Source of the DNA: a virus
Length of the DNA stretch: 44,269 bases
IMG/VR virus record: IMGVR_UViG_3300010396_000023
Coordinates: 1-44,269 of that record
Reading direction: 5' to 3' (one strand)
Positions within the stretch are counted from its first letter, which is position 1. Each line of letters begins with the position of its first letter. This document shows, piece by piece, positions 4,165 to 44,269 of the stretch. The notes under the pieces are model-generated. The model made no database searches, was not told where the DNA came from, and worked only from the letters and a program-made list of their open reading frames with translations. The position numbers and the translations under genes are program-made.

Positions 4165-4496
4165 AGCCCCCCACAATCCGTGAGGTCATATCCTCGATGG
4201 GCTATTGCTGCCCCAAGCTCTTCTTCACCATCTTCCCTTCCACCCTCACGGCGTCCCTCCGCTTGGGCTTCAGCCGCCGGGCCATCAAGTACGCCAAGCA
4301 AAAAGCCCGCACCGAGGGGTGTGCGGGCTGTGGGGGTTGCCAGTGGCCTATGCTGGCTGTACTAGAGCGCGCAGTGCAGCAACGCCGGCATCAGCTGAGT
4401 GATCCTCCACCGACAAGCCGCCCGGCCACTCCTCCGGCCGAATCACCGATAGTTGTCCGGCGTGGAGCCATAGGTGATCCCGAGGAGGATGACTAG
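4161..4496 (+). CDS. Hypothetical protein (uncertain ORF at the convergence point)
   Basis: An ATGA overlap with the upstream stop and a TAAGGAG 5 nt upstream favour translation. Against this, the last ~150 nt run antisense through the lipase-like gene and the ORF spans the late-operon terminator hairpin. Confidence 0.3.
   Translation: MKPPTIREVISSMGYCCPKLFFTIFPSTLTASLRLGFSRRAIKYAKQKARTEGCAGCGGCQWPMLAVLERAVQQRRHQLSDPPPTSRPATPPAESPIVVRRGAIGDPEEDD
4299..4329 (-). terminator. Intrinsic terminator of the leftward late operon
   Basis: A perfect 9-bp stem (agcccgcac 4304-4312 / gtgcgggct 4321-4329) with an 8-nt loop. On the minus strand it is followed by TTTTG, 19 nt downstream of the lipase-like stop at 4348. 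Confidence 0.7.
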
Positions 4497-5046
4497 CACC
4501 CCAATCTGTGACGAAGGGGTAGCCGAAGAAGATATCCCCCTGGTGGACTACGCTCACCGTGTCCTCCCTCCCATACGCCGCCCAATACGCGGCGTTTGCG
4601 GCTTTCGGGCTCTCGAACACATGGAGGCCAGCGAGACGGGACTCCGGGCAGAACAGCGGGGAGTAGTATGTCCGCCACCCGCCCAGACTATGCCCTTCCA
4701 CCCAAACCGGAGCGGTAGCGGGGAGGTTGGCAAAGACCCATTTCCACAACCCAAACAGACCCTCGAAGGGACCCGAGGCCACCTTCGCCCCGCCCCCCAC
4801 GTCCTTCCCCTCCACCTCCAGGTCCTTCAGCAGGTCCTCCACCTGCCCGTCGGAGAATCGCGTCCCGGAGATGGAGAGGAATCCTGTCCCCTCCCGCATG
4901 GTCAGTGCCGCTTGCACACTCCCCTCCCGATACTGACCTACCCAGGTCTGTCCCAACGCCTCGAACGCTCCACGCGCAGCTTCTGCGTCCATCACATAAG
5001 CCGCGCGGGCGCGTTCATACGCTGCTAGGACTTCCTCCAGGTTCAC
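4348..5046 (-). CDS. Lipase class 3-like alpha/beta serine hydrolase, last gene of the lysis cassette
   Basis: 232 aa. It has the nucleophile elbow VEGHSLGGW, a downstream HQGDIFF (candidate Asp) and a C-terminal VEDHSAD (candidate His). The GTG start overlaps the lipoprotein stop (GTGA). Confidence 0.7.
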   Translation of the reverse strand: MNLEEVLAAYERARAAYVMDAEAARGAFEALGQTWVGQYREGSVQAALTMREGTGFLSISGTRFSDGQVEDLLKDLEVEGKDVGGGAKVASGPFEGLFGLWKWVFANLPATAPVWVEGHSLGGWRTYYSPLFCPESRLAGLHVFESPKAANAAYWAAYGREDTVSVVHQGDIFFGYPFVTDWGASHPPRDHLWLHAGQLSVIRPEEWPGGLSVEDHSADAGVAALRALVQPA

Positions 5047-6251: not shown

Positions 6252-7868
6252 TTAGTTTGGTAACGGTCCCGATACTTCCCAGTACACAATAGAGGTTCCC
6301 GCCGGACCTCCAGTGTTAAGCACAATCTGAGAAGAAGCCGGACTGGTTACATACACGGTAGAAGTCGAACTGGTGGGTGCAATCAATGACACATTTATCG
6401 ATTCAGGAGTAGCTGCTAAACTAAATGGAAATGCAACTGTAACGGGAGTTCCTGCCGTAACAGTTACTTGCCCGTATATACGCATTTTTGCATTACTCAA
6501 AGGTTCATAAAACACCGGGCCCGCATACCCCGGCCAGTTTGCTGTAGAACCGAAACGATTTGTAACTGAGATAAACTCGTTCGGACCGATCCGGATATTA
6601 GGACCATTACCTGTTCCAAAGGTTATAGCAACCTGGAAAGTGTTAAAAGTATTTCCCGTAATATTTGCACTGTCTACACTGGCCAGCGCGATAGCATCTG
6701 ATGCTGCATTACCTCCAAAAAAGTTGCCTCCATGAATCTCAATCCCACCGCCTGAAAGGCTCAGCCACGTACCCCCGTTGGTTAATACATCTCCAAGCCA
6801 GTTACTGGCGAATTCCAGCCCATTAAAAGGGTTTGTTGGAAAGTTTACCATGGCCCCAGCCTCCACATTGCCGGGTGTACCACTATTATATCCTTCAAAA
6901 GTGTTGCCTTTAACCCACCAAGCCTGACCACCGCCTTGGATTGGGATCTGACTAGTATCTATAAACTGACATTGTGTGATCTTTACGACGTTTGAAAAAC
7001 TACTATTATTCGCTCCATTGATCGCATAGAGCAGTTGCCCAAACACACAAGAATCGATTTCTACTTCAATTGCCTTATCGAGGGTAATCGCCTTGGCAAT
7101 GTACTTAGCAGCGCCACTTCCGTAGAAGCCGCATCTGCGGATTTTGGTAAAGGCTGAGTTTGCCGGAGACGAACCCAGTCCCACAATGAAGCCTGTAAAA
7201 CTTGCATTTTTGGTAATAAACTGTATGCCTTCAATGCATAGAGCTACCGAGCCCGGTGCGTTGATAAAGTTAGCCGCACCCGTTGCGTTTACGTACACAA
7301 GGGTCGTTGCCGCAGCACCTGCTGTAACCCCGCCATCTCCTTTAACCGTTATACCTGTTTTATTGGTGAAATCCGGCCAAGCCGATATGGCATACGTGCG
7401 CCCTCCTGGTAGGTACAAAAGGCCTCCAGCTGCTGGTAATGCCGCAACGTAACTGGCTAAGGCCGGTGCATCGTCATGTGTTCCATCTCCATAGGCACCA
7501 AATGTAAAAATAGAAACTGGGTAGCTAGCATTTAGATACCAGCGTGTCCCATCAGCTCCTACAATAATCGTGCCATTATTGTCGAGAGAAGTCATATCAG
7601 CCAAATTGGCCCAATACAGCCCTCCACCCCCATCTCCAGAGACTCTATATCCGGTCACAAACACAAAGGGAGTAATGGAGGTTCTCACCGCCGCGCGTAA
7701 AGCTGCAATACTAGTCCGCACCGTATTGACTTGTAACGTAGCTGCAAGGCCTGGATTAACCGGAGTAGTTCCGTCCTGTCCTAACACCCGATACACGGCA
7801 TCATTAATGTCCTGACACCACGGCGCAGTAACCACCGTGATCTGCGATTGAAAGGTCGTATCCGTCAT
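6252..7868 (-). CDS. Tailspike / depolymerase with pectate-lyase-like right-handed beta-helix
   Basis: 538 aa. FGAYGDGTHDDAPAL is the Pectate_lyase_3-type signature. Repetitive G/N/T-rich beta-helix-like sequence follows. It is the last structural gene and has visibly lower GC than its neighbours. Confidence 0.8.
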   Translation of the reverse strand: MTDTTFQSQITVVTAPWCQDINDAVYRVLGQDGTTPVNPGLAATLQVNTVRTSIAALRAAVRTSITPFVFVTGYRVSGDGGGGLYWANLADMTSLDNNGTIIVGADGTRWYLNASYPVSIFTFGAYGDGTHDDAPALASYVAALPAAGGLLYLPGGRTYAISAWPDFTNKTGITVKGDGGVTAGAAATTLVYVNATGAANFINAPGSVALCIEGIQFITKNASFTGFIVGLGSSPANSAFTKIRRCGFYGSGAAKYIAKAITLDKAIEVEIDSCVFGQLLYAINGANNSSFSNVVKITQCQFIDTSQIPIQGGGQAWWVKGNTFEGYNSGTPGNVEAGAMVNFPTNPFNGLEFASNWLGDVLTNGGTWLSLSGGGIEIHGGNFFGGNAASDAIALASVDSANITGNTFNTFQVAITFGTGNGPNIRIGPNEFISVTNRFGSTANWPGYAGPVFYEPLSNAKMRIYGQVTVTAGTPVTVAFPFSLAATPESINVSLIAPTSSTSTVYVTSPASSQIVLNTGGPAGTSIVYWEVSGPLPN

Positions 7869-7880
7869 TTTATTCTCCGT

Positions 7881-9002
7881 TCAATTCGTACGTTGAGCTA
7901 CGATAAAGCCTATTGCAGTGTTGGTTGAAACTGCAAAGGTGGAATTTACAACCAGATAGTAGACGGTGTTTGTCGTCACCCGAATCGGCATCGGATCAAG
8001 CGTTCCACCCACTGCTGATCCGGCCGGAGCAGAGAACGGAAGAAGGAACTCCGCCACCTGTCCGGTGAAGGATGTGCTGGTCGGGCTGATCGCTGCGTTG
8101 ACGATCGATTGCGTCGTCGAGCCAGCCGGGATCGTCAGCACTTGCCCCCACACCCGCCAGTTCCCTGGTGTAAGAGTGATCGACGCCACATTCGAAGTAA
8201 CGCCGCTGCTCAGCGAAACAGGCGTGCTCGAATTCGTCGCGCAGCCTGTAGGCGAACCTCCGTTCGTGACTTGTGCACAAATCACTTCGCCCACGTCGCC
8301 TGTCCCGGCCGCCACCCCATTCGTGGGGCCAACAATGGCAGGCGTTGTGATTGTAGGGGCTATAGCCAATACCGCCCCACCCGAGCCCGTTACCGCACTT
8401 CCCAATGCCGTTGCTACCCCCGTTCCAAGTCCCGACACTCCTGTGGAGATTGGCAGGCCTGTACCGTTGGTGAGGGTTACTGCTGAAGGTGTTCCAAGAG
8501 CAGGCGTGGTGGATATTGTAACCACTCCCGCACTAAACACCGGCACCCCCGTGGAAGTACTGTTGTTAGCCCCTAGGCCCCCGGCCCAAGTTCCCAACGG
8601 AGTTGTTAAACCAGTCAGGGAAGTGATGTTGGAATTAGCCCCGGCATTGGCCACCGTACCACATGTGAAACTGCCTGTGTTATACTGTAGCGCAGAGGCT
8701 GCAGTGTTGCACCCTGTGGGCAGTGCTATCGCCGCGGGCGAAGCAGCAGTTCCCGTCACATTCGCCAACACGGTGTTAGCTGCTTGACTCGCCAAGTCCG
8801 TTGGAGTGATCAACCCTGTTGCCGTCAATCCCATCGTGACAGTTAGCCCGCTAACCTGCCCATTCACCGTGTTAACGGCCTGGGCGAAGGCTGCATTCAA
8901 TTGTGCTGCCGTGAGGATTTGCCCGGACAGAAAACCAGGAGTCACCTGTCCAAATGCTGCACCGCACAGTACTATGCCAAATAGTCCAAGTAGACGTTTC
9001 AT
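7881..9002 (-). CDS. Tail fibre protein with signal-peptide-like N-terminus
   Basis: 373 aa. It has T/G/A/S-rich fibre-type repeats (TNGTGLPISTGVSGLGTGVATALGSAV). The N-terminus MKRLLGLFGIVLCGAAFGQV looks Sec-like. Confidence 0.75.
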   Translation of the reverse strand: MKRLLGLFGIVLCGAAFGQVTPGFLSGQILTAAQLNAAFAQAVNTVNGQVSGLTVTMGLTATGLITPTDLASQAANTVLANVTGTAASPAAIALPTGCNTAASALQYNTGSFTCGTVANAGANSNITSLTGLTTPLGTWAGGLGANNSTSTGVPVFSAGVVTISTTPALGTPSAVTLTNGTGLPISTGVSGLGTGVATALGSAVTGSGGAVLAIAPTITTPAIVGPTNGVAAGTGDVGEVICAQVTNGGSPTGCATNSSTPVSLSSGVTSNVASITLTPGNWRVWGQVLTIPAGSTTQSIVNAAISPTSTSFTGQVAEFLLPFSAPAGSAVGGTLDPMPIRVTTNTVYYLVVNSTFAVSTNTAIGFIVAQRTN

Positions 9003-9388
9003 CCCAACTCCGATACGTTAAGTACAAACACATCCAGCGCATTTTGTGCAGTAGGGTCATAAGTGCCCGCTTGCCATTCCGGCGGAACGAAGTCAACAAT
9101 CATACAACCCACCACACCTACATCCACAAGCGCCACGCGACCTTCCCATGTACACACCGGCACGAAGGTGTCCTCATAGGGTTGTTGCCATGGAGGGGTG
9201 ATGACGTCCTTGACAGCCCTCACAAAGTCCTGCGGATGGCGCGGTTCCCAATGCTCCGGACATACCCAGTATCCCTGCCAATGCTTTTGGAGGGTGGAGG
9301 CTTTACGCTTCCGCCCACACTGAAAACACACTGCATTCCAGTCTCCGAGCTCCAGATAGTCCGCCCGTCCGCGAATAGGATTAGCCAT
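8999..9388 (-). CDS. Zn-ribbon protein (CxxC...CPEH) preceding the tail fibre
   Basis: Start trimmed to MANPIRGRADYLELGDWNAVCFQCGRKRK...WVCPEHWEPRHPQDF. It overlaps the upstream stop by 8 nt and has an ATGA overlap with the fibre gene. Confidence 0.7.
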   Translation of the reverse strand: MANPIRGRADYLELGDWNAVCFQCGRKRKASTLQKHWQGYWVCPEHWEPRHPQDFVRAVKDVITPPWQQPYEDTFVPVCTWEGRVALVDVGVVGCMIVDFVPPEWQAGTYDPTAQNALDVFVLNVSELG

Positions 9389-10667
9389 GATTCCACTCCT
9401 TCGCATAGCCAAAGCCCTTAAGGAGCTTCAACTTATCCTTCACCTTCCGCCCAATGTCATCACGGTAGAGGGCGGAGTTGGGGATGTTGATCTTCTTCAC
9501 CCGGGAGTAGGTTTGGTCGACGGCTTCTGTCACCGTTCCCGCCCTTCCGCACACCGTGATGGGAGTGGTATTGGCTGTCACCCGTGCGGGCTTACCCAGC
9601 ACCTCTCCCATCATCGTCCCGTCCTGCGCCACCCACTTCTCCTGCCCCTCCAGTCCGAATATGGGGAAGCCCGACGATTCCTCCACCGGCCGACGACAGA
9701 AAGGGAAGTCGGGCAGCCCCATCACCACACCCACGGCAACGTCATACAGGGGTTTGAAGGTGTCCCGCCCCTGCACAAGGTTCAGCATCCACTCCGCTTT
9801 GTCTGGGTGGAGGACCTGTTGAATGGCCCACAGAGGGTAGCCAAACCGGCAGGTGAATTCCAGCGGCCACGGCCTTCCCCGTTCATCCACAATCACCGCC
9901 ACGTCGATATAGCCGGTGTAGCCCTGACGGAACAGCTCTGGTTCGAGGGGACGGAGGACTTGGTCGGCGAGCTGGCTCTCCCCCACATACCTCATCACCG
10001 TGCCCATCTCTCCAGTGTTGGGTCCCGAGTCTCCCGCCATGAGCTTCTTGTGTTCGAAGTTCTCCAACCACGGTCCACACCACCCAGAGGGGCCGAAGAA
10101 CCCGCCCACCGCAAACTCGGTGCCGGGGATAAATTCCTGGAGGACGAAATCAGGATGGCCCTGGTGCGTGCGATCCCACCGATCGAGCATGTAGGCTAGG
10201 TCGTCCTGACCTTTGGGAACGTAAGACAGTGCCTTGTCCACATCTCCATTTGGCTTCGCCACGTAGCGTTTCCCCGTCGAAGCTGCAAAGGCCGCGGCTT
10301 TCTTAAAACTCGAGAATCGATAAGAGTCTGCGACAGGCACGCCAGCCCGCTGGAGAACCTCCTGGCCCCTTGCACGATCCAACTCCCATTGGGCAGTCTC
10401 TCGAGTGGACCCGAAGATCGGGTAGTCCTTCTTCCGATACCCGTCAAGGGCAAACATCCCCTTCGAGTTGTCCGAGGCCACTACCAGGTCCGCCCACCCC
10501 ATTGAGGGCTCCCACTCCCGCATCCGCTTGACCAATCCCTTCCCAACCAGATTCGGCTGTCCCTTCAGCACCGCCGGGGAGTACAGCCGGACTTCATGCC
10601 CCTGATCCTGGGCCTGGAGGGCGAAGTGCAGGTTGAGGGCAGTGTGGTCAATCACTAGGATTTTCAT
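9381..10667 (-). CDS. purD: PurD-like ATP-grasp ligase (phosphoribosylamine-glycine ligase homologue) embedded in the virion operon
   Basis: 428 aa. Segments MKILVID, FEHKKLMAGDSGPNTGEMG, YTGYIDVAVIV...LEFTCRFGYP and LYRDDIG align with PurD motifs as I recall them. The ATG overlaps the stop of the 1226-aa gene (ATGA). Confidence 0.8.
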   Translation of the reverse strand: MKILVIDHTALNLHFALQAQDQGHEVRLYSPAVLKGQPNLVGKGLVKRMREWEPSMGWADLVVASDNSKGMFALDGYRKKDYPIFGSTRETAQWELDRARGQEVLQRAGVPVADSYRFSSFKKAAAFAASTGKRYVAKPNGDVDKALSYVPKGQDDLAYMLDRWDRTHQGHPDFVLQEFIPGTEFAVGGFFGPSGWCGPWLENFEHKKLMAGDSGPNTGEMGTVMRYVGESQLADQVLRPLEPELFRQGYTGYIDVAVIVDERGRPWPLEFTCRFGYPLWAIQQVLHPDKAEWMLNLVQGRDTFKPLYDVAVGVVMGLPDFPFCRRPVEESSGFPIFGLEGQEKWVAQDGTMMGEVLGKPARVTANTTPITVCGRAGTVTEAVDQTYSRVKKINIPNSALYRDDIGRKVKDKLKLLKGFGYAKEWNHG

Positions 10668-13600
10668 TCACCCCTCCGTTTGCGGCGATGTTCGTAGCGA
10701 GACTTAGCCTTCGCCGCCTCGCGTTCGGCTTTGCTCATCCGGTAGACCGGCATACCCAGGGTAGACAGCGCCGCCCGTTTGGTTGTCTCACCCAGTGAGC
10801 GACCAGGTGCCGCACCCGTTTGCACGCTGAGGGGGAGCACCGCCCCAGCGAGATGCCCCATCCGAGACTTCATCGGCGGGGCCTTACCCTCCGCGCTCAG
10901 ATACTCCACCCCGAGGAGCTGCGTGAGAGGCTCTTTGATCGCCACACCCAGCTTGTTCAGCGCTGTCTGCCGAGGGTTGAGCAGCCATTCCGGTCCCTCC
11001 ATAGCATGCTTCGCGATTTGCTGGGTAGTCCCGTCCCTCCACTCAATCTTGGTAGGGTCCTTGTTGTCCCAGATAGGATGCCCGCTGGCCATCAGGTTAT
11101 AGCCGTTCATCAGGGTGGCCCAGATCAATGCCGTCCGCATCACGTACTTCATGTGGAGGTTATGCGTGAGGGGCATTGCGGTGCTCCCCGGAAGCGCCTT
11201 ATACATAGCCCGGAAGGTAGACAGAGTCCAGTCCGGAGCGAACATTAGGATTTGGAGAGCACCCCGGCCCTTCGGGGATAGAAGGTGCATGGCGATGTTC
11301 CGGCCAATCGCTGTTTGGGTTTCCGACGCCACCCGATACCAATCCAATCCGCCGAAGGTGTCATTCACAAAGCTTGACACTTGCCTAGCCACTTCATCCT
11401 TCGACCAGGTAGGGTGGTCCCGCAACCCCTTCTCGAACTCCCGTGTGTACAGGGCAAGCTTGAGGCCGGTGTGAAGGTAGTCCCAGGTGAGTTTGTCAAA
11501 CGTCTCCCGTTGGACGGACTCAATGGCCCCCATGCCCTTCTCGAAGGCCGAGAACTTAATGCCCAGGGTTCCGTTGACCAGCCCGTCAATCGCGGCCCCG
11601 AGCTTCTTTCCTGCGGCTAGGTCCGTCTCCATTGGCCGCTCGACCCGCAGTCCATTCCGCAGCCCTGTATCAATCACGTCTCCCAGCCCACCTTCCCGAT
11701 ACGTCTTGAGTGCGGCGTTCACATCTCCCAGCATCTTGGCCGACCGCAGCCCACTCGCGCCGACATAGGCGTTGATCAGATTCTGGGCGTGGAACAGGGA
11801 CATGCCGGTGGACAAGCGTTTCTGGGCAAGGGACAGACCTAGGATGCCTCGCGTCACATACCCCGGCCGGTAGGACTCTGCCACGAACTTCAGCGCAGGG
11901 GCCATATCGGGATGGACTTTCATTCCCTGGAGTTGCGGCGTCACCACCGTCTCATAGCTTTGAGGTGCCTTGTCTGCGGGGAGGATAAAGGGTACACCTC
12001 CCTCCCCGCCTTCCTTCGCGGCCTTGAGGTTATCGAATAGCCGTTTGTTCTCCACCGCCCGAGCCATTGACTGGCCATATATGTCAACCAGGTCCGCAAT
12101 GTCCTTAGTCTTCACCTTGAGCCCGGTGCCCTGCAGGGCCTTTTCTAGCTCCGCAAAGGTGGAGTAGGCGCGGTGCTTGGCAAAGCCTGTTACAGGCGAC
12201 GCACCTCCCATAGCCCGCTCTCCTCCACCGAATAGCGCATCCATCACCTCCTGCACCTTGGTAAGGGGCTGCGCTTCCCGCTCGACCACGTGGGTGACGT
12301 AGTTTTGGACAAGATCCTTCAGCACCCCCTGGTCCTTCGCGGCCTCCCCAAAGCTCCGGGTGAAGCCTTTGTAGGCGTTGTAGACCTTAACCTCTTGGGG
12401 AGACAGCCCGCGGGTGGAACCTTTCTCCACGGCCTCCGCCACCGCTGCTCTGCGAGCAGGGTCCGGTACAGCTGTCCGCATCGCCCAGGAAGTATTGACA
12501 ACCTCTCGCCCCTGAGCTGCTATCGCACCATTCCGGGCATTGACCAGATCATCGATAGACATAGCCCCCACCATCGGCACCTTGGCCTTAGGGAGGAGGT
12601 GAGTTGCTCCCCACAGGCTGCCAAGCACTGCACCCTCGATCGGGTGGTCCTTATCCAGCCGAGACATACCATACGCAACCCCCGCCGTCACGACTCCTGT
12701 CTTAAGTGCTCGTCCCCACTGATCTCCCACCCGCGCCGCATATCGCGGGGCCATCGCCGCAGCCAGTCCTCCCAACCCTCCGAGGATCGCGCCCTCAAGC
12801 TTCTCCTGCTCCGCGAGATGGGCCCCCACCACCGCGCCTGTAGCGGCTGCAGCGACCGGAAGAAGGGTACGCATGTCGACGGAGCCGGACTGGCGGCCGC
12901 CCGGTAATCGGGATGCCGGGGCGGCGGGTTCCGGGCCGGCCAAAAGGGGGCGGGAACCGGGCAATTCGGGCCGTGGCGGGGTTGACGCGCCGCCCATGGG
13001 GGATTGCCCACCCGGCGATTCCGTGCCCGTGGCGGGGCCCTTTTTAATTCCGGTAAGATCGGGCACTGGTGCTTTATTCCATGCGATCTTCTCCTCAGCC
13101 GTCAGGTCAAACTTCCGTCCGGCCGCTATCTTAGCCTGAGCCCTTTCTAGTGCGGATGGCTTGGGCAGTGGGCCACCTTGCAGGGGCTCCTCGCCCAGGA
13201 CCTTGCCCTCCGAGAGACGGGTCTTGGGGGAAGCCTCAAAGGGCTTCCCGTAGCGAGCCTCCACCCCGGCCCGCTTGAAATCCTTCTGATCTTGTAAGTA
13301 AGCCTTCCTCGCCGACTGTCGTAGGTTGTGGGCGTGCTCTCCCTTCGCTGCGGCCTCGTCGAAGTGCTGCTTAGCCTCAGACTCGGCGAAGGGTTGGTCC
13401 TTGTCCCCCTGAATGGTCTGGCTGTGCTCGCGCCGCTTGGCCATGAACTCGTCCAGCTTCTCCCCCACGAGGGGATTATTCTTCCGAGCGGCAAGGACCT
13501 CCTTGAGCGACGCCCCCCGTTTCATCAGGTCGTAGGCCTTGGCCTCAGCATGGATCTCCGCGTCGGATTTCTCCGTAAGGGTCTGCTCCATCTTCCGCGC

Positions 13601-14344
13601 TACATCGTGCGGGGTGAGGTTGTCCGGATTGCCAGTCTGTTCGGTATAGCGGTTGAGAATGTCTTCCGCGGTCTGGTTCCCAACCTTCCCCGACCGGAGT
13701 TCCTCCGGCGAGAGCTTGGCCCGCTCAAGAAGTGCAAAACGAGAGAACCCTAACGGTGCAAGGTTTATCAAGTCTCCTGCCAACACTTGAAGTTGTTGAG
13801 GGGATACTGTGCCGTGAGAAGCCGCTGCAACGTGAGTGCTTCCTTTGGTAAGTGCCTCATTGATAAGCTTGGTAACTTTTCCTACATCCGCATCCGAGTA
13901 ATCTTTTTTGTAGCCCATCGCATGCATGATGTGAGCGATAGGGGAGGTCGTATACTCCGTCACACTCTTGCGGATTGAAGCGCCTTCGGCCGTCTGGCGC
14001 TCTGCCTCCGCTTTAGACAATGGGAGGGAAGTGAAGGTCTCATAGGCTTTTCCGGCGAGGGTAGAGAGCAACCCACCGGGGGTACTCAGCAGCATATCTG
14101 CTAGTCCGGCAAGATCCTTCCCTGCGCGCTTGAGGAAGTGGGTGCTGGATTCCGCAGCTACATCCCCTAGACTCACCGAGGACTTACCCGCGAAAGGGTT
14201 AGATTGCAAGGCAGATAGCGGGATACTCTTCCCTGTGGGCGGTAGAGGGGGCTTGTTTACCTGCCCCGTCTCCCCCATGCCGGGAAGGAGAGCCACCCCC
14301 TGCATCTCCGCCGTCACATCGCCCAGCGAAATGCTCGCCATCAT
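10664..14344 (-). CDS. Large internal virion / DNA-ejection protein (T7 gp16 positional analogue)
   Basis: 1226 aa, the largest gene, lying after the smaller internal proteins and before the fibres. It has a central Gly/Ala-rich hydrophobic block (LLPVAAAATGAVVGAHL...GGLGGLAAAMA). I recognised no enzymatic motif. Confidence 0.65.
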   Translation of the reverse strand: MMASISLGDVTAEMQGVALLPGMGETGQVNKPPLPPTGKSIPLSALQSNPFAGKSSVSLGDVAAESSTHFLKRAGKDLAGLADMLLSTPGGLLSTLAGKAYETFTSLPLSKAEAERQTAEGASIRKSVTEYTTSPIAHIMHAMGYKKDYSDADVGKVTKLINEALTKGSTHVAAASHGTVSPQQLQVLAGDLINLAPLGFSRFALLERAKLSPEELRSGKVGNQTAEDILNRYTEQTGNPDNLTPHDVARKMEQTLTEKSDAEIHAEAKAYDLMKRGASLKEVLAARKNNPLVGEKLDEFMAKRREHSQTIQGDKDQPFAESEAKQHFDEAAAKGEHAHNLRQSARKAYLQDQKDFKRAGVEARYGKPFEASPKTRLSEGKVLGEEPLQGGPLPKPSALERAQAKIAAGRKFDLTAEEKIAWNKAPVPDLTGIKKGPATGTESPGGQSPMGGASTPPRPELPGSRPLLAGPEPAAPASRLPGGRQSGSVDMRTLLPVAAAATGAVVGAHLAEQEKLEGAILGGLGGLAAAMAPRYAARVGDQWGRALKTGVVTAGVAYGMSRLDKDHPIEGAVLGSLWGATHLLPKAKVPMVGAMSIDDLVNARNGAIAAQGREVVNTSWAMRTAVPDPARRAAVAEAVEKGSTRGLSPQEVKVYNAYKGFTRSFGEAAKDQGVLKDLVQNYVTHVVEREAQPLTKVQEVMDALFGGGERAMGGASPVTGFAKHRAYSTFAELEKALQGTGLKVKTKDIADLVDIYGQSMARAVENKRLFDNLKAAKEGGEGGVPFILPADKAPQSYETVVTPQLQGMKVHPDMAPALKFVAESYRPGYVTRGILGLSLAQKRLSTGMSLFHAQNLINAYVGASGLRSAKMLGDVNAALKTYREGGLGDVIDTGLRNGLRVERPMETDLAAGKKLGAAIDGLVNGTLGIKFSAFEKGMGAIESVQRETFDKLTWDYLHTGLKLALYTREFEKGLRDHPTWSKDEVARQVSSFVNDTFGGLDWYRVASETQTAIGRNIAMHLLSPKGRGALQILMFAPDWTLSTFRAMYKALPGSTAMPLTHNLHMKYVMRTALIWATLMNGYNLMASGHPIWDNKDPTKIEWRDGTTQQIAKHAMEGPEWLLNPRQTALNKLGVAIKEPLTQLLGVEYLSAEGKAPPMKSRMGHLAGAVLPLSVQTGAAPGRSLGETTKRAALSTLGMPVYRMSKAEREAAKAKSRYEHRRKRRGE

Positions 14345-15447
14345 TCCTCCTCGAGGTCGAAGCTTTGGGTACCGGGGTTCCAGGTACCCACCTGACCACC
14401 GGGGAGTTTGTAGGCCTGACCCGCCTTAAGGGTTTGGGCGGTGGGATTGGAAGGAAGATTGAGGGCGGATTTCCCGGTAGACGAGGCGACAGGTTTACCG
14501 GAACGATCAAAGTGTGTAACCTTGTGCCCTGTCCCCGGAACGTCCATCCCCATGAACTTGTAGCTGTCATTCAGTGTCTTAAACTGCCCCCTGGATTCTG
14601 TGAATGCTCGCTCCATCGCTGCATCGGCATCCAGACCAGGAGTCGTTTTCCTAATTGCGCGTGCACGAGATGCGATAGTGTAGGCGGCATTAGTGCGCTC
14701 CGCATCGGGTAGATCGGGAAAGGAGTCCTTCAACAGGTCTTCCGCATGGTCCAGTTCACTCTTCACCGGAGCCCCCATGTCCGCATTCCGCCCCCCTGGT
14801 TTAGCCAGCCTTGCCTCCCGCTCCTTTCGGAGCTGAAGGTCCTGCGTCAAGTACCCCTTACGGAACTCCCTGAAACTCTCAGCCGACGATGCGCTTTCGG
14901 CCCGCGTTTGGGCATTCATCTCGTCGATCTTGAGCTTCAGCTTATCTTTCAGCGTGAGGGTGGCTTGCTGCAGGTTAGCCACGAGTTGGGGGCTGTAGGG
15001 GAGGTTCTTGAGGGGCGAGGGGCGACCGGTCATGCTTTCGAACAGGGAATTGGCGGCATCCCATGAGGCCTGGTCGTTCACGTTCCCCAACAGCCCCTCG
15101 GCCATAGCCAGCTCCGCCTTGGCTGCGGTGGCCTGGGCCTGGAAAGTCCGACCCTGCGCTTGCGTTGTTTGGGCCTGCTTCAGCCGCAGCCCCGCCGCAT
15201 CCGTAGCCAACTTCGCCCCCGAGGCCGTCAACCCCGACTTCAGAGCCATGTTGGCCATATCCTCGAGCTGGTCCGCCGGCCCCTTTCCCGAGCCAGCCTC
15301 CTGCTGAGCAAGCTGAGCCATACGGGCCTGTTCCGCAAGCTGGGTAGCCATACTCGCATTGCGAAGCTGCTGACCCTGCAATTGCGCGCCCTGCATCATA
15401 TCCCCGAGGGCTGCGGAGGTTCCTTGGGCACTTCCGAAGATAGGCAT
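14341..15447 (-). CDS. Internal virion protein, Q/A-rich coiled-coil type
   Basis: Start trimmed to MPIFGSAQG (ATG at 15447, 1 nt after the upstream stop). The composition is A/Q/L-rich. The stop overlaps the ATG of the large protein (ATGA). Confidence 0.6.
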   Translation of the reverse strand: MPIFGSAQGTSAALGDMMQGAQLQGQQLRNASMATQLAEQARMAQLAQQEAGSGKGPADQLEDMANMALKSGLTASGAKLATDAAGLRLKQAQTTQAQGRTFQAQATAAKAELAMAEGLLGNVNDQASWDAANSLFESMTGRPSPLKNLPYSPQLVANLQQATLTLKDKLKLKIDEMNAQTRAESASSAESFREFRKGYLTQDLQLRKEREARLAKPGGRNADMGAPVKSELDHAEDLLKDSFPDLPDAERTNAAYTIASRARAIRKTTPGLDADAAMERAFTESRGQFKTLNDSYKFMGMDVPGTGHKVTHFDRSGKPVASSTGKSALNLPSNPTAQTLKAGQAYKLPGGQVGTWNPGTQSFDLEEE

Positions 15448-15448
15448 G

Positions 15449-16522
15449 TTAGAACCCCAATCCTTTGATACCGTACCCAAGTGCTCCAAGGGCAGACGAA
15501 GCGGCATTGTTACCCGAGGTCATTCCTTGCAACGCCGCTGCCGTACTTGCAGCCCCACTCGAAGTGAGTTGTTGGAGCTGTTGGACTTGCTGGTTGAAGA
15601 AATTCCCACCGTAGGCCTGGAGGGCCGCGGCCATGTTCCCAGAACCCTGATACCCCTGCGCAGCCATCGAGCGCTCAACTGCGTCCATCCCGGCTTGATA
15701 CCCAGGCATGGAAGTGATTGAAGAAGGATTCTTCATCAGGTTGTTCAGCATCGCCGCGTACTCGGGGCTGTACTGGCCCCCCGACGCCTTGAGTTGGTTG
15801 ACCAAATCGTCCATCTGGGAGGAGCGGTTGAGGCCGAATATCCCTGAACCAATGGAGAGAAGGGAACTGAGAGGGCCTAAAGTTCCACCACCCCCTCCAC
15901 CGCCCAGTCCTCCGAGCAGAGAGGCGAGGCCCCCTCCTCCGCCCCCGCTACCACCACCACCCAATCCCCCTAGCAGCGCGCCGAGGCCTCCGCCTCCACC
16001 TCCACCACTCCCTTCCCCTAGCATGGACATGGGATCGAAGCTGCTCAGCGGGTCCATACCGCCACCCCCGCTAAACAGGGAAGTGGGGTTGAAACTCCCC
16101 ATGCTTCCCATACTTCCGCCAGGGCCCCCTAGAAGCGACATGGGGCTAAATCCGCCCGTCGAGCCGCCACTACCGCCAAACAGACTGCCCAGCATACTAC
16201 TAAAACCTCCACCTCCCCCACTGGCACTGCCCCCGCCCGCACTGCCCAAAATGTCACTCAGGAAGCCTCCGCTCCCGCTGGAGCCAGCCGTACCAACCCC
16301 AGCGGCTCCAGCTCCCAGGGAGCTCAGTGCGCTACCCCCAAAGTAACCGCCCACCCCGCCCATTCCGGCGCCTTTGAGGATGTTTCCCCAGCCACCACCG
16401 TTCATGGCGCCGCCAAGCCCACCACCAATCGCGCCACCTGCAGCAGCGCCCATGGGGCCCCCGAAGTAAGCACCGACGAGAGTACCTGCAATCGGCAAAA
16501 TTGAACTAACGACGTGGCTCAT
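15449..16522 (-). CDS. Extremely glycine-rich virion protein
   Basis: 357 aa with runs such as GGGGGGGLGALLGGLGGGGSGGGGGG. The C-terminal ~110 aa have normal composition. An ATGA overlap links it to the GNAT stop. Confidence 0.65.
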   Translation of the reverse strand: MSHVVSSILPIAGTLVGAYFGGPMGAAAGGAIGGGLGGAMNGGGWGNILKGAGMGGVGGYFGGSALSSLGAGAAGVGTAGSSGSGGFLSDILGSAGGGSASGGGGGFSSMLGSLFGGSGGSTGGFSPMSLLGGPGGSMGSMGSFNPTSLFSGGGGMDPLSSFDPMSMLGEGSGGGGGGGLGALLGGLGGGGSGGGGGGLASLLGGLGGGGGGGTLGPLSSLLSIGSGIFGLNRSSQMDDLVNQLKASGGQYSPEYAAMLNNLMKNPSSITSMPGYQAGMDAVERSMAAQGYQGSGNMAAALQAYGGNFFNQQVQQLQQLTSSGAASTAAALQGMTSGNNAASSALGALGYGIKGLGF

Positions 16523-16965
16523 GTCAGCTCCTTATAAAATGACGGGCCCATAGGGAGATAGCCCATTTTATGGTAGAATCGCCCAGTGCGTTCTTCCGCA
16601 ACGCCACTAGAGACTCCGTTGATTATGCGTGTGGCACCATGCTCACGAGCCCACTCTTCGAAGGCCCCAACAAGTCTCCATGCTCGTCGCGTACCCCGAT
16701 GATCAGGGTGGACCCACAGGAGATTCTGTACCGCGTACATTGTCTGAAACCAAACAGCTGGCTCGAGAGCACCGCATATGAACCCGGTATGGTCTTCCAC
16801 CACTCGGATGCATACGGCATCTGGGAATTGGAGAACGCCGACCAGCCGTTTATACTGATCGGCGGAACTCGTAGGTAAATCAGCATAATGGGGAGCCTCC
16901 TGTTGGGCGTGCGCGCCCGCCTCAATGAGCCAAGGAATATCAGCGATGGTTGCAGGGCGGATCAC
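16519..16965 (-). CDS. GNAT-family N-acetyltransferase embedded in the virion operon
   Basis: 148 aa. VHPDHRGTRRAWRLVGAFEEWAREHGA resembles GNAT motif A (V.P.yRGkGiG..L) and FYHKMGY resembles motif B. The GTG start overlaps the upstream stop (GTGA) and GGAG lies 5 nt upstream. Confidence 0.75.
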   Translation of the reverse strand: MIRPATIADIPWLIEAGAHAQQEAPHYADLPTSSADQYKRLVGVLQFPDAVCIRVVEDHTGFICGALEPAVWFQTMYAVQNLLWVHPDHRGTRRAWRLVGAFEEWAREHGATRIINGVSSGVAEERTGRFYHKMGYLPMGPSFYKELT

Positions 16966-17705
16966 GATAGCTCCATGATGAGGCCAAGTCCACCACCGCC
17001 AAGACCCCCAGAAGCACTTCCCGAACTCGGGGGGCTGGCGCCACCACTACCACCCGCCGCATAGCCGACGGCGTTGGAGCCTATACCTGCTCCCACCGGC
17101 AATCCCCCTTGTCCCCAAAGGGCAGAGGCTCCTTGTCCACTCATCACCGCCGAGGTTCCAAGGGATATCCCGGCCAATCCGGCCGCAGCATGACCTACGA
17201 TCAAACCACCCGCCGTCCCCCCGGCACCGCCGAGGGTAAAGGTGGGTGCAGTAACCGCTGTCCCCGAAATGCCGGCTTTCCCGCCACCCGCTGATAGGGT
17301 ACTGAAAGTAGACGCCCCTCCATCCCCGCCGCTCAGACCACCTGCCCCTATTGTGAAGGGTAGGTTATTGAAGTTAGTAGTGAACAGTTGCATGGCAAAA
17401 GCCCCCGCACCGCCACCTCCACCCACCGAAACCTGACCGGTCAAGGTTGAGGCGGATGCACCGCCGCCCCCTCCACCACCCCACGCCATAACCAGCACGT
17501 TATTCGTACCATTACTAGCTACATATATCCCGCTGGCCACCACCGGGATAAAGTCGCGTAAACGTCCAGCGCTAGAAGAAGAAAGGAACTGGGCTAGTTG
17601 CAGAAACCATTGCAGCCAGATAGGGTTGAACTGGTTATCGCCGCTCTGCTCATTGACGATGACGGGCAGGGCGAAGGTAGGAGGAGTCGGGTAAACGGTA
17701 GCCAT
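16962..17705 (-). CDS. Glycine-rich tail/virion protein
   Basis: 247 aa. It has an ordered N-terminus (FNPIWLQWFLQLAQFL) followed by WGGGGGGGASAS...GGGGGAGA blocks typical of phage glycine-rich fibre-associated domains. TAATG coupling to the hub gene. Confidence 0.6.
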   Translation of the reverse strand: MATVYPTPPTFALPVIVNEQSGDNQFNPIWLQWFLQLAQFLSSSSAGRLRDFIPVVASGIYVASNGTNNVLVMAWGGGGGGGASASTLTGQVSVGGGGGAGAFAMQLFTTNFNNLPFTIGAGGLSGGDGGASTFSTLSAGGGKAGISGTAVTAPTFTLGGAGGTAGGLIVGHAAAGLAGISLGTSAVMSGQGASALWGQGGLPVGAGIGSNAVGYAAGGSGGASPPSSGSASGGLGGGGLGLIMELS

Positions 17706-19138
17706 TACCCGTCTCCCAGTTCGAGGTCGGCTTCAAGGGCTTGGACAAGCCGTCCACCCGCAGTGCTGGCCTGACGGAGATGCCATACCCGCCGACGGAA
17801 GGTGCCACAGTTAGCCAAGTATGGATCAACCATACCCATATCAACTTCACGAAAGTTCGACCACGTACGGTAGTTGTCATCCGATACACGAATCTGAAGG
17901 ACGTTTCCAGGGTAGTTATCCCCCACCACCCGCAGCCGATCAATCACTTTCCGGCGGTGCGTGCCCCCGTCAAACTCTGGGGTGTAAACATCCGTCGGCA
18001 CAATCACACCGTTATCTGTGCCCACTTGTGTACTCAATTTATACAGCCGACCATCCGACTGTCCTTGGCAGATGGTCTGGCCACCTAGGAAGGTTGAAGC
18101 CACGATCGGCATGTAATTGCCTGAGGTGTCCGTCCACTCGTACCACATTTTCTGAGCAATGTCATAAACCAGTGTGACGTTGAGGTTCTGGATAGTCAAA
18201 CAGTAAAACAGATGCCCATCGATTTTTCCGGTCCAGGCGTACACATTACCCGAATAGTATCCTTGCGCATCGGCGTATTGCAGGAGACGCTCCACCTGGG
18301 GCGTCGAACAGGGTTGTCCCGTGGCCTGATCCATGATCCGCACGGAGGACCCGCCATTTCGAATCTGGTCGACCCACAGAAGCACGCCCGCCAATTCTGC
18401 TACCGTGCGGGCATCCCGACAACCGTAGTTGAGCTTCTGACCCGGCACCGAGCCGAGTGGAGAGCCGGTGGCGTTCCCCGCATCGAAGAACATCTCTATA
18501 CTATAGGTCTTGAACGCCACCACATAGACAAGCTGCTTGAGAAGCGCAATTCCCGGACACGGCTCACTCTGGGCCACAATCAAGTTGGTAGCTACCCATT
18601 GTCCAGTAGCCACATTGTTTATGTTAGAACCCCAGATGTTAGCCTGAGCATCCATCACATACATAGTACCATCAAGGTACACACAGCCCGGTACGGAAGT
18701 TGTAAAGCTCCCCGGCGTGATAGCGGTCAAGCCCGCGGAGGAATTGTAGTAGTAATAGTGCGAACCGTTCTGAAGGAAGAGGGAAGGAGTGGCACCGAGC
18801 AGAGAGCTGAAAGTGTAGGGTGCGGAGGAATCCACAGCTCCGAGTGCCGTGGTACCCGCATAGAGGGTTCCCCCGAACACCGAGTACACTACATTATTCC
18901 AGTTAAATACTCCCAAGCCCGAGGCTGCGCCTCCGGAGGGCTGGGTGTAAGGAACCAAACATGGTCGCTTGTAAATCCACACTTCCCCGCGCTCTACCTG
19001 CTCTGCGTAGGCATTCACCAAGCGGCCATCGATCTTGTAATTCTCACTCCGGTTCCGGAGGTCTGTTGCAAGGGGAATGCGAATAGGCCGACTATCGCCG
19101 ACCCCTTGTCCACCCGTGCCTTGCGGAGGTGTGCTCAT
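17705..19138 (-). CDS. Tail hub / nozzle protein (P22 gp10 / T7 gp12 positional analogue)
   Basis: 477 aa with beta-rich repetitive G..Y patterns. It immediately follows the adaptor-like gene with ATGA coupling. Confidence 0.55.
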   Translation of the reverse strand: MSTPPQGTGGQGVGDSRPIRIPLATDLRNRSENYKIDGRLVNAYAEQVERGEVWIYKRPCLVPYTQPSGGAASGLGVFNWNNVVYSVFGGTLYAGTTALGAVDSSAPYTFSSLLGATPSLFLQNGSHYYYYNSSAGLTAITPGSFTTSVPGCVYLDGTMYVMDAQANIWGSNINNVATGQWVATNLIVAQSEPCPGIALLKQLVYVVAFKTYSIEMFFDAGNATGSPLGSVPGQKLNYGCRDARTVAELAGVLLWVDQIRNGGSSVRIMDQATGQPCSTPQVERLLQYADAQGYYSGNVYAWTGKIDGHLFYCLTIQNLNVTLVYDIAQKMWYEWTDTSGNYMPIVASTFLGGQTICQGQSDGRLYKLSTQVGTDNGVIVPTDVYTPEFDGGTHRRKVIDRLRVVGDNYPGNVLQIRVSDDNYRTWSNFREVDMGMVDPYLANCGTFRRRVWHLRQASTAGGRLVQALEADLELGDG

Positions 19139-19851
19139 TGGAAGTCCATACCGTAGAAGCCCATACGCGCATCAGGCACGAATTGGGTGGGGGCATCCTC
19201 TACATCCCAATCGTCCAGGGCTTGGCGGTACATAGCCGCCTTGGCTTGGCACCGCTGCACAATCCGCTCGGGTTGACCGGAGGCCAGCTCATCCGCCAGC
19301 CCCCATCGCAGGGCCAAGCCCCACTCGATAGGGAAGCCCATCGAATCAGTAAGGGCGACAGGGTTAACCATCTGCTGCCGAGTGATGAGGTGGAGGGTAC
19401 CCGTTGCGGCCACCGCATCCGGGACAAGCCACGTCTTCACAATGAACTGAGTCTGCTGCTTGTCCACAAAGTAGCTGTTGATTTGGCCTTGCTGGTTGAC
19501 CTGGGATAGTCGGACCCAGTCATCCCAGGCAAGGGGAATGAGCGGGCGGCGGATGCCTGCGGAGTCCGCGTAGTATCCCTCCACCACCTGAAGGGGCTTG
19601 GTCATCACCACAGTCCCTGCCGGCCCCATCGTGTAGGTGCTCTGCCCCGCAACCAACGTGATCCCAATATCCGCAGTGATCCAGAGCTTCAATCCCTGCG
19701 TCACCCAGAAGTTAACCATGTCCTGCAGTAGCATCCACCCGCGCGCCATCTGCTCGCTGTTCGGGACCGACCCCTCTTGCACGAGGAGACAGTCCCGATA
19801 GGCGAAGGTGATGATGCGCCCGGCTGTGTACTGGGAGACAGGCGTGGTCAT
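19135..19851 (-). CDS. Head-to-tail adaptor-like protein
   Basis: 238 aa. The call rests on position between the head genes and the tail hub, with ATGA coupling on both sides. Confidence 0.5.
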   Translation of the reverse strand: MTTPVSQYTAGRIITFAYRDCLLVQEGSVPNSEQMARGWMLLQDMVNFWVTQGLKLWITADIGITLVAGQSTYTMGPAGTVVMTKPLQVVEGYYADSAGIRRPLIPLAWDDWVRLSQVNQQGQINSYFVDKQQTQFIVKTWLVPDAVAATGTLHLITRQQMVNPVALTDSMGFPIEWGLALRWGLADELASGQPERIVQRCQAKAAMYRQALDDWDVEDAPTQFVPDARMGFYGMDFQ

Positions 19852-43872: not shown

Positions 43873-44269
43873 ATGTACGCCTATATATTCGACACTGAAA
43901 CTACCGGCTTCAACGAACCCCAAGTTATCCAGGCCGCTTCGCGCCGCCTTACTATCCAAGGAGACGAGGGCATTAACGCTGCAGCCTTTTACTGTCCCTC
44001 CAAGCCAATCGAGCTGGGTGCGAAGGCCGTCCACCACATCCTGGAGAGCGAGCTGATAGACAAACCCGCGTCGTCCGAGTTCTGCTTCAATGATGCTTGC
44101 CCTAGATGTACCTATCTAATAGGCCACAATATAGATTACGACTGGGAAGTCGTAGGTAAGCCGGATGTGAAGCGTATATGCACCCTAGCAATGGCCCGGA
44201 CGTTCTGGCCCACTCTGGACTCCCATTCCCAAACGGCCTTGATGTATTTCCACTTCGGAGACGCGGCAA
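43873..44269 (+). CDS. DnaQ/ExoX-like DEDDh 3'-5' exonuclease, N-terminal part (continues at 1..422)
   Basis: MYAYIFDTETTGF carries ExoI (DxE) and LIGHNIDYDW carries ExoII. The frame stays open to the window end and joins 1..422 in frame, giving 231 aa in total. Confidence 0.85.
   Translation, partial: MYAYIFDTETTGFNEPQVIQAASRRLTIQGDEGINAAAFYCPSKPIELGAKAVHHILESELIDKPASSEFCFNDACPRCTYLIGHNIDYDWEVVGKPDVKRICTLAMARTFWPTLDSHSQTALMYFHFGDAA
44147..44269. repeat. Terminal direct repeat, right copy (identical to 1..123)
   Basis: Exact 123-nt identity with the window start. Confidence 0.95.

Follow-up and report, generated by a model that had tools for sequence, protein, structure and literature searches.

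A PurD-fold ATP-grasp ligase with altered substrate sites in the virion operon of a podophage clade

The ligase gene and its predicted fold

The virus record IMGVR_UViG_3300010396_000023 of IMG/VR, analysed here over its whole length of 44,269 nucleotides (nt) and referred to below as the window, contains on its minus strand an open reading frame (ORF) for an ATP-grasp ligase of 428 amino acids (aa) that is related to PurD (phosphoribosylamine-glycine ligase). The gene lies in the operon of the virion proteins, directly behind a 1226-aa ORF of the internal (ejection) type. Residue comparison with PurD suggests that the active site is intact in its ATP and acyl-phosphate half and that both substrate sites have been rebuilt. 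According to the ORF list, the gene occupies 9381..10667, and this copy contains no intein. Because nt 1-123 are repeated exactly at 44147-44269, the window represents a complete genome of ~44.1 kb, circularly assembled or terminally redundant. The gene and its features are as follows (AF2, AlphaFold2).

9381..10667, minus strand: gene of the PurD-fold ATP-grasp ligase, 428 aa (ORF list, GARS_A, TIGR00877, AF2 and Foldseek)
10398..10667, minus strand: N-domain, ~residues 1-90; predicted PurD N-domain fold kept, GGGGREHA, APGN and GPExPL absent, no GARS_N match
10218..10256, minus strand: ATP-binding Lys138 with an altered B-loop, KPNGDVDKALSYV (KADGLAAGKGV in PurD), from the column comparison
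9999..10034, minus strand: GDSGPNTGEMGT loop with family-specific Glu220 (Gly in PurD), compared with DTGPNTGGMG of Salmonella PurD
9831..9860, minus strand: catalytic motif EFTCRFGYPL, compared with EFNCRFGDPE of Salmonella PurD
9450..9467, minus strand: C-domain motif YRDDIG (Arg402-x-Asp404-Ile-Gly), kept from PurD (YRNDIG in Salmonella)
10664..10680, minus strand: coupling junction with a GGAGG Shine-Dalgarno sequence and an ATGA start/stop overlap, read from the sequence

The gene overlaps both of its neighbours. The upstream junction reads GGAGGGGTGAATGAAA, in which the ATG of the ligase overlaps the TGA of the 1226-aa ORF, and the GGAGG Shine-Dalgarno sequence of the ligase sits within that ORF. 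The downstream junction reads AAGGAGTGGAATCATGGCTAA and gives an 8-nt overlap between the ligase stop codon and the ATG of the next gene, which encodes a Zn-ribbon protein. There, an AAGGAG Shine-Dalgarno sequence is followed after 7 nt by ATGGCTAA, and the ATG at 9388 is most likely the start of the Zn-ribbon gene, which the mechanical ORF list places at TTG 9412 instead.

Homology with PurD was evident in profile, sequence and structure searches. Pfam GARS_A matched the ligase at E 1e-12 (48.7 bits, cutoff 27), GARS_C reached 24.7 bits, which is under its cutoff, and GARS_N gave no match. The NCBIfam purD equivalog model TIGR00877 aligned with residues 77-409 only, at E 8.7e-25 and 87.4 bits against a cutoff of 288, and a sequence search of the PDB matched ten PurD entries, down to E 2.6e-20. 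The AF2 model, built from 70 homologs, had a predicted local distance difference test score (pLDDT) of 93.2 and a predicted template-modelling (TM) score of 0.91. When this model was compared with the PDB by Foldseek, the best 15 matches were all PurD (TM 0.73-0.78, 19-23% identity, ~440 columns), followed by PurK, biotin carboxylase and PurT at TM ~0.55-0.64. These matches put the PurD homology far beyond chance, and the model predicts the four-domain PurD fold (N, B, A and C); judged by its sequence, the ligase is not a PurD orthologue. The first-pass annotation, made from the letters alone, had called the protein PurD-like from the motifs GDSGPNTGEMGT, EFTCRFGYPL and YRDDIG; all three are present, and the profile and structure searches bear the call out.

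Compared with PurD (EC 6.3.4.13; PDB 2YW2, 1GSO and 2QK4), the ligase shares the N-B-A-C fold and the GARS_A domain. Also common to both are the Lys and Glu residues that bind ATP, the Glu that binds Mg, the Arg of the acyl-phosphate, the GPNTG loop and, near the C-terminus, R-x-D-I-G. The ligase is only 19-26% identical to PurD, stays under the equivalog cutoff, has a new Asp255 and lies in a phage morphogenesis operon with no purine context. The sister PurD-clade enzymes PurK, PurT and biotin carboxylase have the acyl- or carboxy-phosphate chemistry in common with it, but PurD is clearly closer to the ligase than they are, and the ligase has none of their substrate motifs. In a neighbour-joining tree, which has no support values, the ligase family formed one clade on a long stem apart from PurD. 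PHROGs contained no family for the ligase, BFVD contained no close viral structure (best viral ATP-grasp matches to the model at TM 0.42 or less), and PADLOC returned no defence-system match for the ligase, a GNAT acetyltransferase of the same operon or their neighbours.

Active-site residues, inteins and the purine annotation

In human GARS, Arg13 and Glu14 are on the phosphoribosylamine (PRA) side and have been proposed to orient PRA, Asp217, Arg292, Asp295 and Glu297 surround glycine, and Arg385 is found in the pocket (PMC2978367). In a PurD of 423 residues, ATP is bound by Lys103, Lys143, Glu185, Glu192 and Lys214, and glycine by Asp212, Arg287 and Glu292 (PMC8880213). We compared residue columns in an alignment of 89 family representatives (down to 29% identity) with four genuine PurDs. 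E95, R98 (Lys in PurD), K138, E184, E205 (Asp in PurD), K207, E270, R274 and R402-x-D404-I were each found in 96-100% of the 89 representatives, and the ATP-grasp hallmark residues among them (K138, K207, E184, E270 and R274) each in at least 97%; D255 was also highly conserved. K138, present in 98%, aligns with K145 of E. coli and Salmonella PurD, and the EFTCRFGYPL motif retains Glu270 (Mg) and Arg274 (acyl-phosphate). R402 occurred in 99% and D404 in 97% of the family, and R402 may be the equivalent of Arg385 of human GARS.

Other parts of the site are different. The motifs GGGGREHA, APGN, GPExPL and C-domain GGR, invariant in the four PurDs, were unconserved or different in the 89 representatives. 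In the AF2 model, the N-domain of the window protein begins with a strand (residues 2-6), a loop and a helix (residues 13-21), and a DHTALNLH loop (10626-10649) stands in place of PurD GGGGREHA. Among the glycine ligands of the E. coli enzyme, D214 is replaced by Glu, R290 is kept, D293 is replaced by Trp or Tyr, and E295 is variable in the family (Leu in the window). Within EFTCRFGYPL, N288 of PurD has become Thr272, D293 (the ligand of the glycine amine) Tyr277, and E295 Leu279. In the family columns, N288 is replaced by Thr in 94% and G229 by Glu in 87%, and the Tyr-x-Gly of PurD by Asp255-x-Asn, with Ala at position 257 in the subclade of the window. PurT has Ser, not Asn, after the Mg-binding Glu, so that Thr272 need not abolish catalysis. 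The change from GDPE to GYPL and the divergent N-domain, which were noted at the outset as leaving the substrate open, are thus a family-wide signature rather than a quirk of one sequence. The accompanying suggestion of a glycine ligase is weakened, since the acidic residues that hold the glycine amine in PurD are replaced.

If the ligase were a diverged PurD that still works and raises late purine synthesis, the gene would be a purine auxiliary metabolic gene, which was one proposal of the first-pass annotation. PurD is the best match in every library, JGI and NCBI call family members phosphoribosylamine-glycine ligase, and surveys have listed phage purD as such a gene (PMC11097641, PMC12043954). 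However, the protein scores 87 bits against the equivalog cutoff of 288 bits, the GGGGREHA motif with the proposed PRA-orienting Arg and Glu is lost together with APGN, GPExPL and GGR, and neither D293 nor E295 is kept. PRA is very unstable, and its direct transfer from PurF to PurD has been suggested (PMC2978367), yet the complete 44.1-kb genome contains no other pur gene, purF included, and the opposite strand, which carries replication genes and a DNA methylase (ParB-fused N6/N4), contains no nucleotide-metabolism gene. Moreover, the family stands as one clade on its long stem apart from PurD, and the gene is located in the virion operon and not in a metabolic or early region. We regard this explanation as highly improbable. 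The purine-gene annotation is probably wrong because the ligase has lost the substrate sites of PurD. The same purD label on hundreds of phage genomes and prophages is probably wrong too, and viromics then counts purine auxiliary metabolism from it (PMC11097641, PMC12043954).

The family is broad. A word-indexed search returned more than 120 proteins at E < 1e-121, many on contigs of 42-46 kb, and an exhaustive search of 1.84 billion representatives returned 214 clusters (50% identity) at E <= 1e-30. At least 530 contigs in IMG/VR encode a relative of the ligase. In INPHARED, a single record contained it (MW202796, an uncultured phage, 42% identity), and no cultured phage there did. The 435-aa ligase ORF of that record (MW202796.1, locus L095, 42140-43447) is left unannotated in GenBank, where the phage is labelled Myoviridae, though its genes are podophage-like.

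Inteins with Hint, intein-splicing and LAGLIDADG domains were found in 21 of the 150 best representatives (584-1123 aa). Their junction sequences define four insertion sites, N217|T218, G222|T223, N257|C258 and T272|C273 (window nt ~9850-10017), all of which fall in the most conserved catalytic motifs, the first two in the GDSGPNTGEMGT loop and the last in EFTCRFGYPL. The carriers are among P0121-P0246; P0231 holds two inteins and P0163 a mini-intein. Inteins typically settle where the host protein tolerates no change. The intein sites and the residue conservation therefore argue for an active enzyme that is important to the phage, and the four sites suggest that the phages depend on it. A structural virion component, recruited for its shape and catalytically dead, would agree with the position of the gene in a structural operon. 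In contrast, the ATP, Mg and acyl-phosphate residues are near-invariant over the 214 clusters, and the inteins target exactly the catalytic motifs, as is typical of strongly constrained sites; a dead protein is hardly credible.

The late operon and its variation among relatives

On the late strand, the gene order is terminase, portal, major capsid protein (MCP), SU10-type adaptor, P22 gp10-like nozzle, Gly_rich_2 protein, GNAT, Gly-rich protein, 388-aa protein, 1226-aa protein, ligase, Zn-ribbon, fibre, spike, GH108 lysin and lipase-like protein. The features around the ligase are listed below.

19135-19851, minus strand: SU10-type adaptor (library matches)
17705-19138, minus strand: P22 gp10-like nozzle or 'stabilisation' protein (library matches)
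16962-17705, minus strand: fibre-like protein with 25% Gly (Pfam Gly_rich_2)
16519..16965, minus strand: GNAT acetyltransferase within the virion operon (Acetyltransf_1, 33.9 bits)
15449-16522, minus strand: internal-type Gly-rich protein, 357 aa, 31% Gly; homologs recur at the same position in related loci
14341-15507, minus strand: internal-type protein, 388 aa (ORF list)
10664..14344, minus strand: large internal (ejection-type) protein, 1226 aa, directly upstream of the ligase (position, homology with locus L004)
8999..9388, minus strand: Zn-ribbon protein, 129 aa from the probable ATG at 9388 (AAGGAG Shine-Dalgarno sequence, 8-nt overlap)
6252..9002, minus strand: tail fibre (7881-9002) and tailspike (6252-7868) (PHROG tail-fibre families and a pectate-lyase-like fold)
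4304..4329, minus strand: intrinsic terminator closing the late operon (9-bp stem with 7 GC pairs, then TTTTGCTT)

The terminator at 4329-4304, past the last late gene, was the sole convincing one on the minus strand between 4 and 20 kb, so that the operon has no internal terminator over this range, and no promoter-like site was found in the vicinity of the ligase. The placement of the gene in the late virion operon, proposed at first sight, is supported. The GC content, the GC content at third codon positions (GC3) and the codon usage of the ligase agree with the late-gene backbone (codon cosine 0.94), and the gene is therefore not a recent pick-up from a host. The 1226-aa protein had no match in Pfam or PHROG, and BLASTP detected no homology with gp19 of Alcaligenes phage QDWS535. 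Its residues 75-314 are homologous (E 3e-12) to a 1177-aa protein at the same position in L004, which bears an SLT lytic-transglycosylase domain, and this homology supports the 'ejection-type' label by inference.

The neighbourhood was compared in related loci, the genes of which were called by a simple ORF caller. In most of 80 IMG/VR loci, the order was adaptor, nozzle, small protein, Gly-rich protein, ~450-500-aa protein, large protein (550-1900 aa), ligase and fibre-type genes. Prophages in cultured Paraburkholderia and Burkholderia isolates have three internal-type proteins followed by the ligase, and these genera are likely hosts of the ligase phages. Such prophage cassettes were found in L105, L106, L110, L111, L112, L115 and L118, and the isolates include P. 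rhynchosiae WSM 3937, P. tropica LMG 22274, P. phenoliruptrix LMG 22037 and B. semiarida CCRMBC74. Divergent loci vary this arrangement. In L099 (29% identity) the gene directly before the ligase encodes a 1779-aa protein and overlaps it by ATGA, and in L012 the nozzle gene comes before the ligase. The SU10-like L102 and L103 carry the ligase between portal and MCP, where it overlaps a 99-aa gene, and in MW202796 it closes the operon behind the last internal protein, with the Zn-ribbon and fibres upstream of the adaptor. Across the window, most of the 80 loci, the prophages and the divergent branches, the gene belongs to the internal-protein cassette that follows adaptor and nozzle, or else adjoins the portal. 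The constant feature is the morphogenesis operon together with closeness to portal-axis or internal-protein genes. The coupling to the 1226-aa protein through ATGA, a central point of the first-pass annotation, holds in the window, and an ATGA or 1-nt overlap with the large protein recurs in 18 of 71 related loci; it is not a family-wide property. L102 (15588-17382) and L103 (12508-14302) also contain two glycosyltransferases in the structural module (Glyco_transf_9 and a weak Glycos_transf_1 match), which hints at virion glycosylation in these phages.

Several possible partners of the ligase were considered and rejected. Zn-ribbon homologs occur in QDWS535 and MW202785, which have no ligase, and lie far from the ligase in MW202796. 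The Zn-ribbon gene is linked to fibre genes and not to the ligase, so the adjacency to Zn-ribbon and fibre, real in the window as an 8-nt overlap, is incidental. GNAT and Gly-rich genes are present in the operon, as had been pointed out, but among 42 non-redundant loci the GNAT lay upstream of the ligase in only 12 and strongly Gly-rich proteins accompanied it in only 10, and GNAT is found in the ligase-less QDWS535; they are not obligate partners, and the supposed link to the ligase is weak. A conserved C-terminal tag on the upstream protein, in the style of RimK and S6, was rejected because the C-termini are diverse. An adjacent precursor peptide resembling those of ribosomally synthesised and post-translationally modified peptides was rejected as well, since the small downstream ORFs share an N-terminal fibre-type motif or look spurious.

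Downstream neighbours are frequently of the fibre type. In L004, a protein similar to GP4 fibre-I gp80 follows the ligase directly, and many downstream neighbours carry an N-terminal PPVPP...W...L motif, which may be read as a fibre anchor. A PPxPP...W..W/L..L N-terminus is also common to the Gly_rich_2 protein of the window (16962-17705) and to fibre-type proteins of 71-486 aa (e.g., L039, L046 and L064), and is probably a common tail-attachment module.

Fused and cellular relatives were also found. P0158 is a single genuine ORF, in which the frame is stop-free over 1.2 kb against 15-16 stops in each other frame; it has an ATGA overlap with an upstream 884-aa gene, and a 396-aa segment rich in Gly, Ala, Ser, Pro and Gln, similar to internal proteins, precedes the fused ligase. 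In the neighbour-joining tree, a cellular sub-branch was nested within the viral family. Apparently cellular homologs are L010 (ENA ctg164769, 73 kb), L096, L097 and L098, and a PrmA/MTS methyltransferase gene comes after the ligase in L096 and L097. P0253 combines the ligase with a full SET domain (26.9 bits, cutoff 22.4), and its neighbours are a second SET protein, a methyltransferase of the CMAS type and a radical-SAM enzyme similar to RlmN. P0240 and P0222 each have a heme-oxygenase-like (PF14518) gene next to them, and P0240 has a PrmA/MTS-type methyltransferase behind it as well. These cellular neighbours fit amine or protein modification or small-molecule biosynthesis, and none fits purine synthesis.

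Proposed role and competing explanations

We tentatively propose, as a reading that is quite possible though short of probable, that the protein is an active carboxylate-amine ligase whose substrates are new, and that it is produced together with the internal virion proteins and either acts on these or travels with them. The ligase would have descended from PurD, keeping its four-domain fold, and would no longer make glycinamide ribonucleotide. It would bind Mg-ATP, phosphorylate a carboxylate to an acyl-phosphate and hand the acyl group to an amine. The carboxylate is presumably not glycine, because the residues that hold the glycine amine are now Trp or Tyr and a variable residue, and the amine is presumably not PRA, because the whole PRA-side motif set of the N-domain has been replaced. 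Placed last in the internal (ejection) protein cassette, the ligase would be a dedicated late gene of a large podophage clade. Either an internal virion protein would be modified in the infected cell, or the ligase would be packaged and ejected into the next host, where ATP returns. Since there is no ATP outside the cytoplasm, the ligase would therefore work in the producing cell at assembly or after delivery to a new cell. Of the roles suggested in the first-pass annotation, the packaged enzyme and the modifier of virion proteins are the best candidates.

This proposal is supported by the conserved position by internal proteins or portal, the P0158 fusion, the operon without an internal terminator or promoter, and the late-type codon usage. 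The SET fusion and the SET and PrmA-type neighbours of the cellular homologs hint at protein or amine chemistry. Several observations weigh on the other side. Enzymatic activity, late co-expression, packaging and a protein substrate are inferred, and the coupling of the genes is loose in places, with a spacer of >150 nt between large protein and ligase in 45 of the 71 loci and no conservation of the C-termini of the upstream proteins in these loci. In the phage collection, the ligase is absent from the two closest ligase-less relatives, QDWS535 and MW202785, the only two genomes in this comparison. QDWS535 has GNAT, 354-aa, 332-aa and 1190-aa proteins and then lysozyme, that is, the same internal-protein cassette without a ligase. 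Therefore, virion assembly does not require the ligase, and the gene is accessory. In addition, the window ligase is compact and globular, without the low-complexity or hydrophobic segments typical of ejection proteins. Its close structural relatives (PurD, PurK, PurT and biotin carboxylase) all use small molecules, the kept Arg-x-Asp motif of the C-domain suggests a PurD-like small-ligand pocket, and the cellular homologs lie in clusters that resemble small-molecule biosynthesis (heme-oxygenase-like, CMAS methyltransferase and radical-SAM genes).

The latter points favour the main rival, a late small-molecule ligase that would couple a small carboxylic acid with a small amine, for example an amino acid, polyamine or amino-sugar phosphate. 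Its product would be a late-infection metabolite, e.g., a DNA counter-ion, cofactor or signal, and the operon position would serve only for timing. The closest folds all handle small molecules, the closed four-domain architecture and the C-domain R-x-D-I-G are retained, and cellular homologs stand beside genes for a heme-oxygenase-like oxidase, a CMAS methyltransferase and a radical-SAM protein. There is also a weak match to AdoMet (S-adenosylmethionine) decarboxylase near the ligase in L100, and the family-specific E220, D7, D60 and D66 could suit a cationic amine. P0216 and P0226 (L012) have a ~125-aa C-terminal extension that is possibly phosphatase-like; its motifs (DxDxT-like, ...KIFT... 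and ...IIDD...) and its beta-alpha-beta pattern recall HAD phosphatases of the capless kind. However, this likeness lies in motifs only, the extension having no Pfam or PDB match and an AF2 pLDDT of 51. Furthermore, no conserved partner biosynthetic gene neighbours the ligase in the phages, its place by internal-protein or portal genes is precise across very divergent phages, and one lineage is fused to an internal-protein-like segment. We consider a small-molecule ligase rather unlikely, and yet a serious alternative.

Returning to the proposed protein-associated ligase, a bolder form of it would have the enzyme packaged with the ejection proteins and injected along with the DNA. Seconds into the infection, it would then spend host ATP on amide-linking a group to a protein of the host or of the phage. 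We regard this form as doubtful; if true, a purine enzyme would have given rise to a new class of injected effector, namely an ATP-grasp 'first-strike' protein ligase. Packaged or ejected enzymes such as the N4 virion RNA polymerase are likewise encoded among head and internal-protein genes and enter the host with the DNA, packaging being putative for the ligase. Further examples are T4 Alt, the P1 Dar proteins and MuF-fused toxins, and the portal-adjacent ligase of L102 and L103 resembles MuF-type cargo in position. To our knowledge, no ATP-grasp ligase is known as a packaged or ejected enzyme.

RimK, the tubulin tyrosine and glycine ligases and the graspetide ligases form ATP-dependent protein amide bonds, as proposed here, and share the arrangement of a modifier encoded by its possible targets. 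They belong to another ATP-grasp clade, however, and our ligase has no adjacent precursor peptide or conserved C-terminal tag, so the analogy is functional only. LUZ24-like and Pa11-type Pseudomonas podophages of ~45 kb also encode an ATP-grasp protein of unknown substrate (PMC3890496, PMC6209634), and the ATP-grasp, amidoligase and glutamine amidotransferase genes of these phages were described by Iyer et al. 2009 (cited in PMC7824862). In contrast to the ligase, that protein has 291 aa, is encoded in the early or replication module next to amidoligase and glutamine amidotransferase genes, is not of the PurD fold and has no structural-module linkage. No amidoligase or glutamine amidotransferase was found in the window or related loci. 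We found no description of a PurD-fold ligase in a podophage virion module in the literature that could be searched. The fold and chemistry are known, and the proposed specificity and the biological setting are new.

A late DNA modification with the timing of Mu Mom was also weighed, in which an amine or amino acid would be placed onto a carboxyl- or phosphate-bearing base as protection from restriction before packaging. The operon structure points to late expression just before packaging, the same operon encodes a GNAT, Mom being a GNAT-fold enzyme, and the genome encodes the ParB-fused N6/N4 DNA methylase. However, the genome contains no genes for modified-base precursors (hydroxymethylase, kinase or deazaguanine pathway), we know of no PurD-clade enzyme acting on DNA, and the gene follows internal proteins and portal, not replication genes. 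This explanation is very unlikely.

Since PurD is known for strict specificity (PMC2978367), a PurD-fold enzyme with an apparently rebuilt substrate pocket would be a natural example of scaffold repurposing. Enzymes whose genes belong to the ejection-protein cassette are candidate injected effectors or candidate post-translational modifiers of the ejection apparatus, both of which are poorly understood, and the prophage copies in cultured Paraburkholderia and Burkholderia strains make the question experimentally tractable.

Some features of the genome outside the ligase region were also observed. The tailspike gene (6252-7868) has a GC content of 48% and a GC3 of 0.41, against ~59% and 0.7 in the backbone, and because these values are below the backbone, the spike may be a recently exchanged receptor-binding module. 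A 232-aa protein (4348-5046, minus strand) ends the late operon after the lysis genes and has a visible GHSLGG-type serine motif, and its homolog in L002 gave a weak Lipase_3 match. On the plus strand, a family A DNA polymerase (419-2917) carries an N-terminal domain of the uracil-DNA-glycosylase superfamily, a fusion that is also present in L002, L003 and L004.

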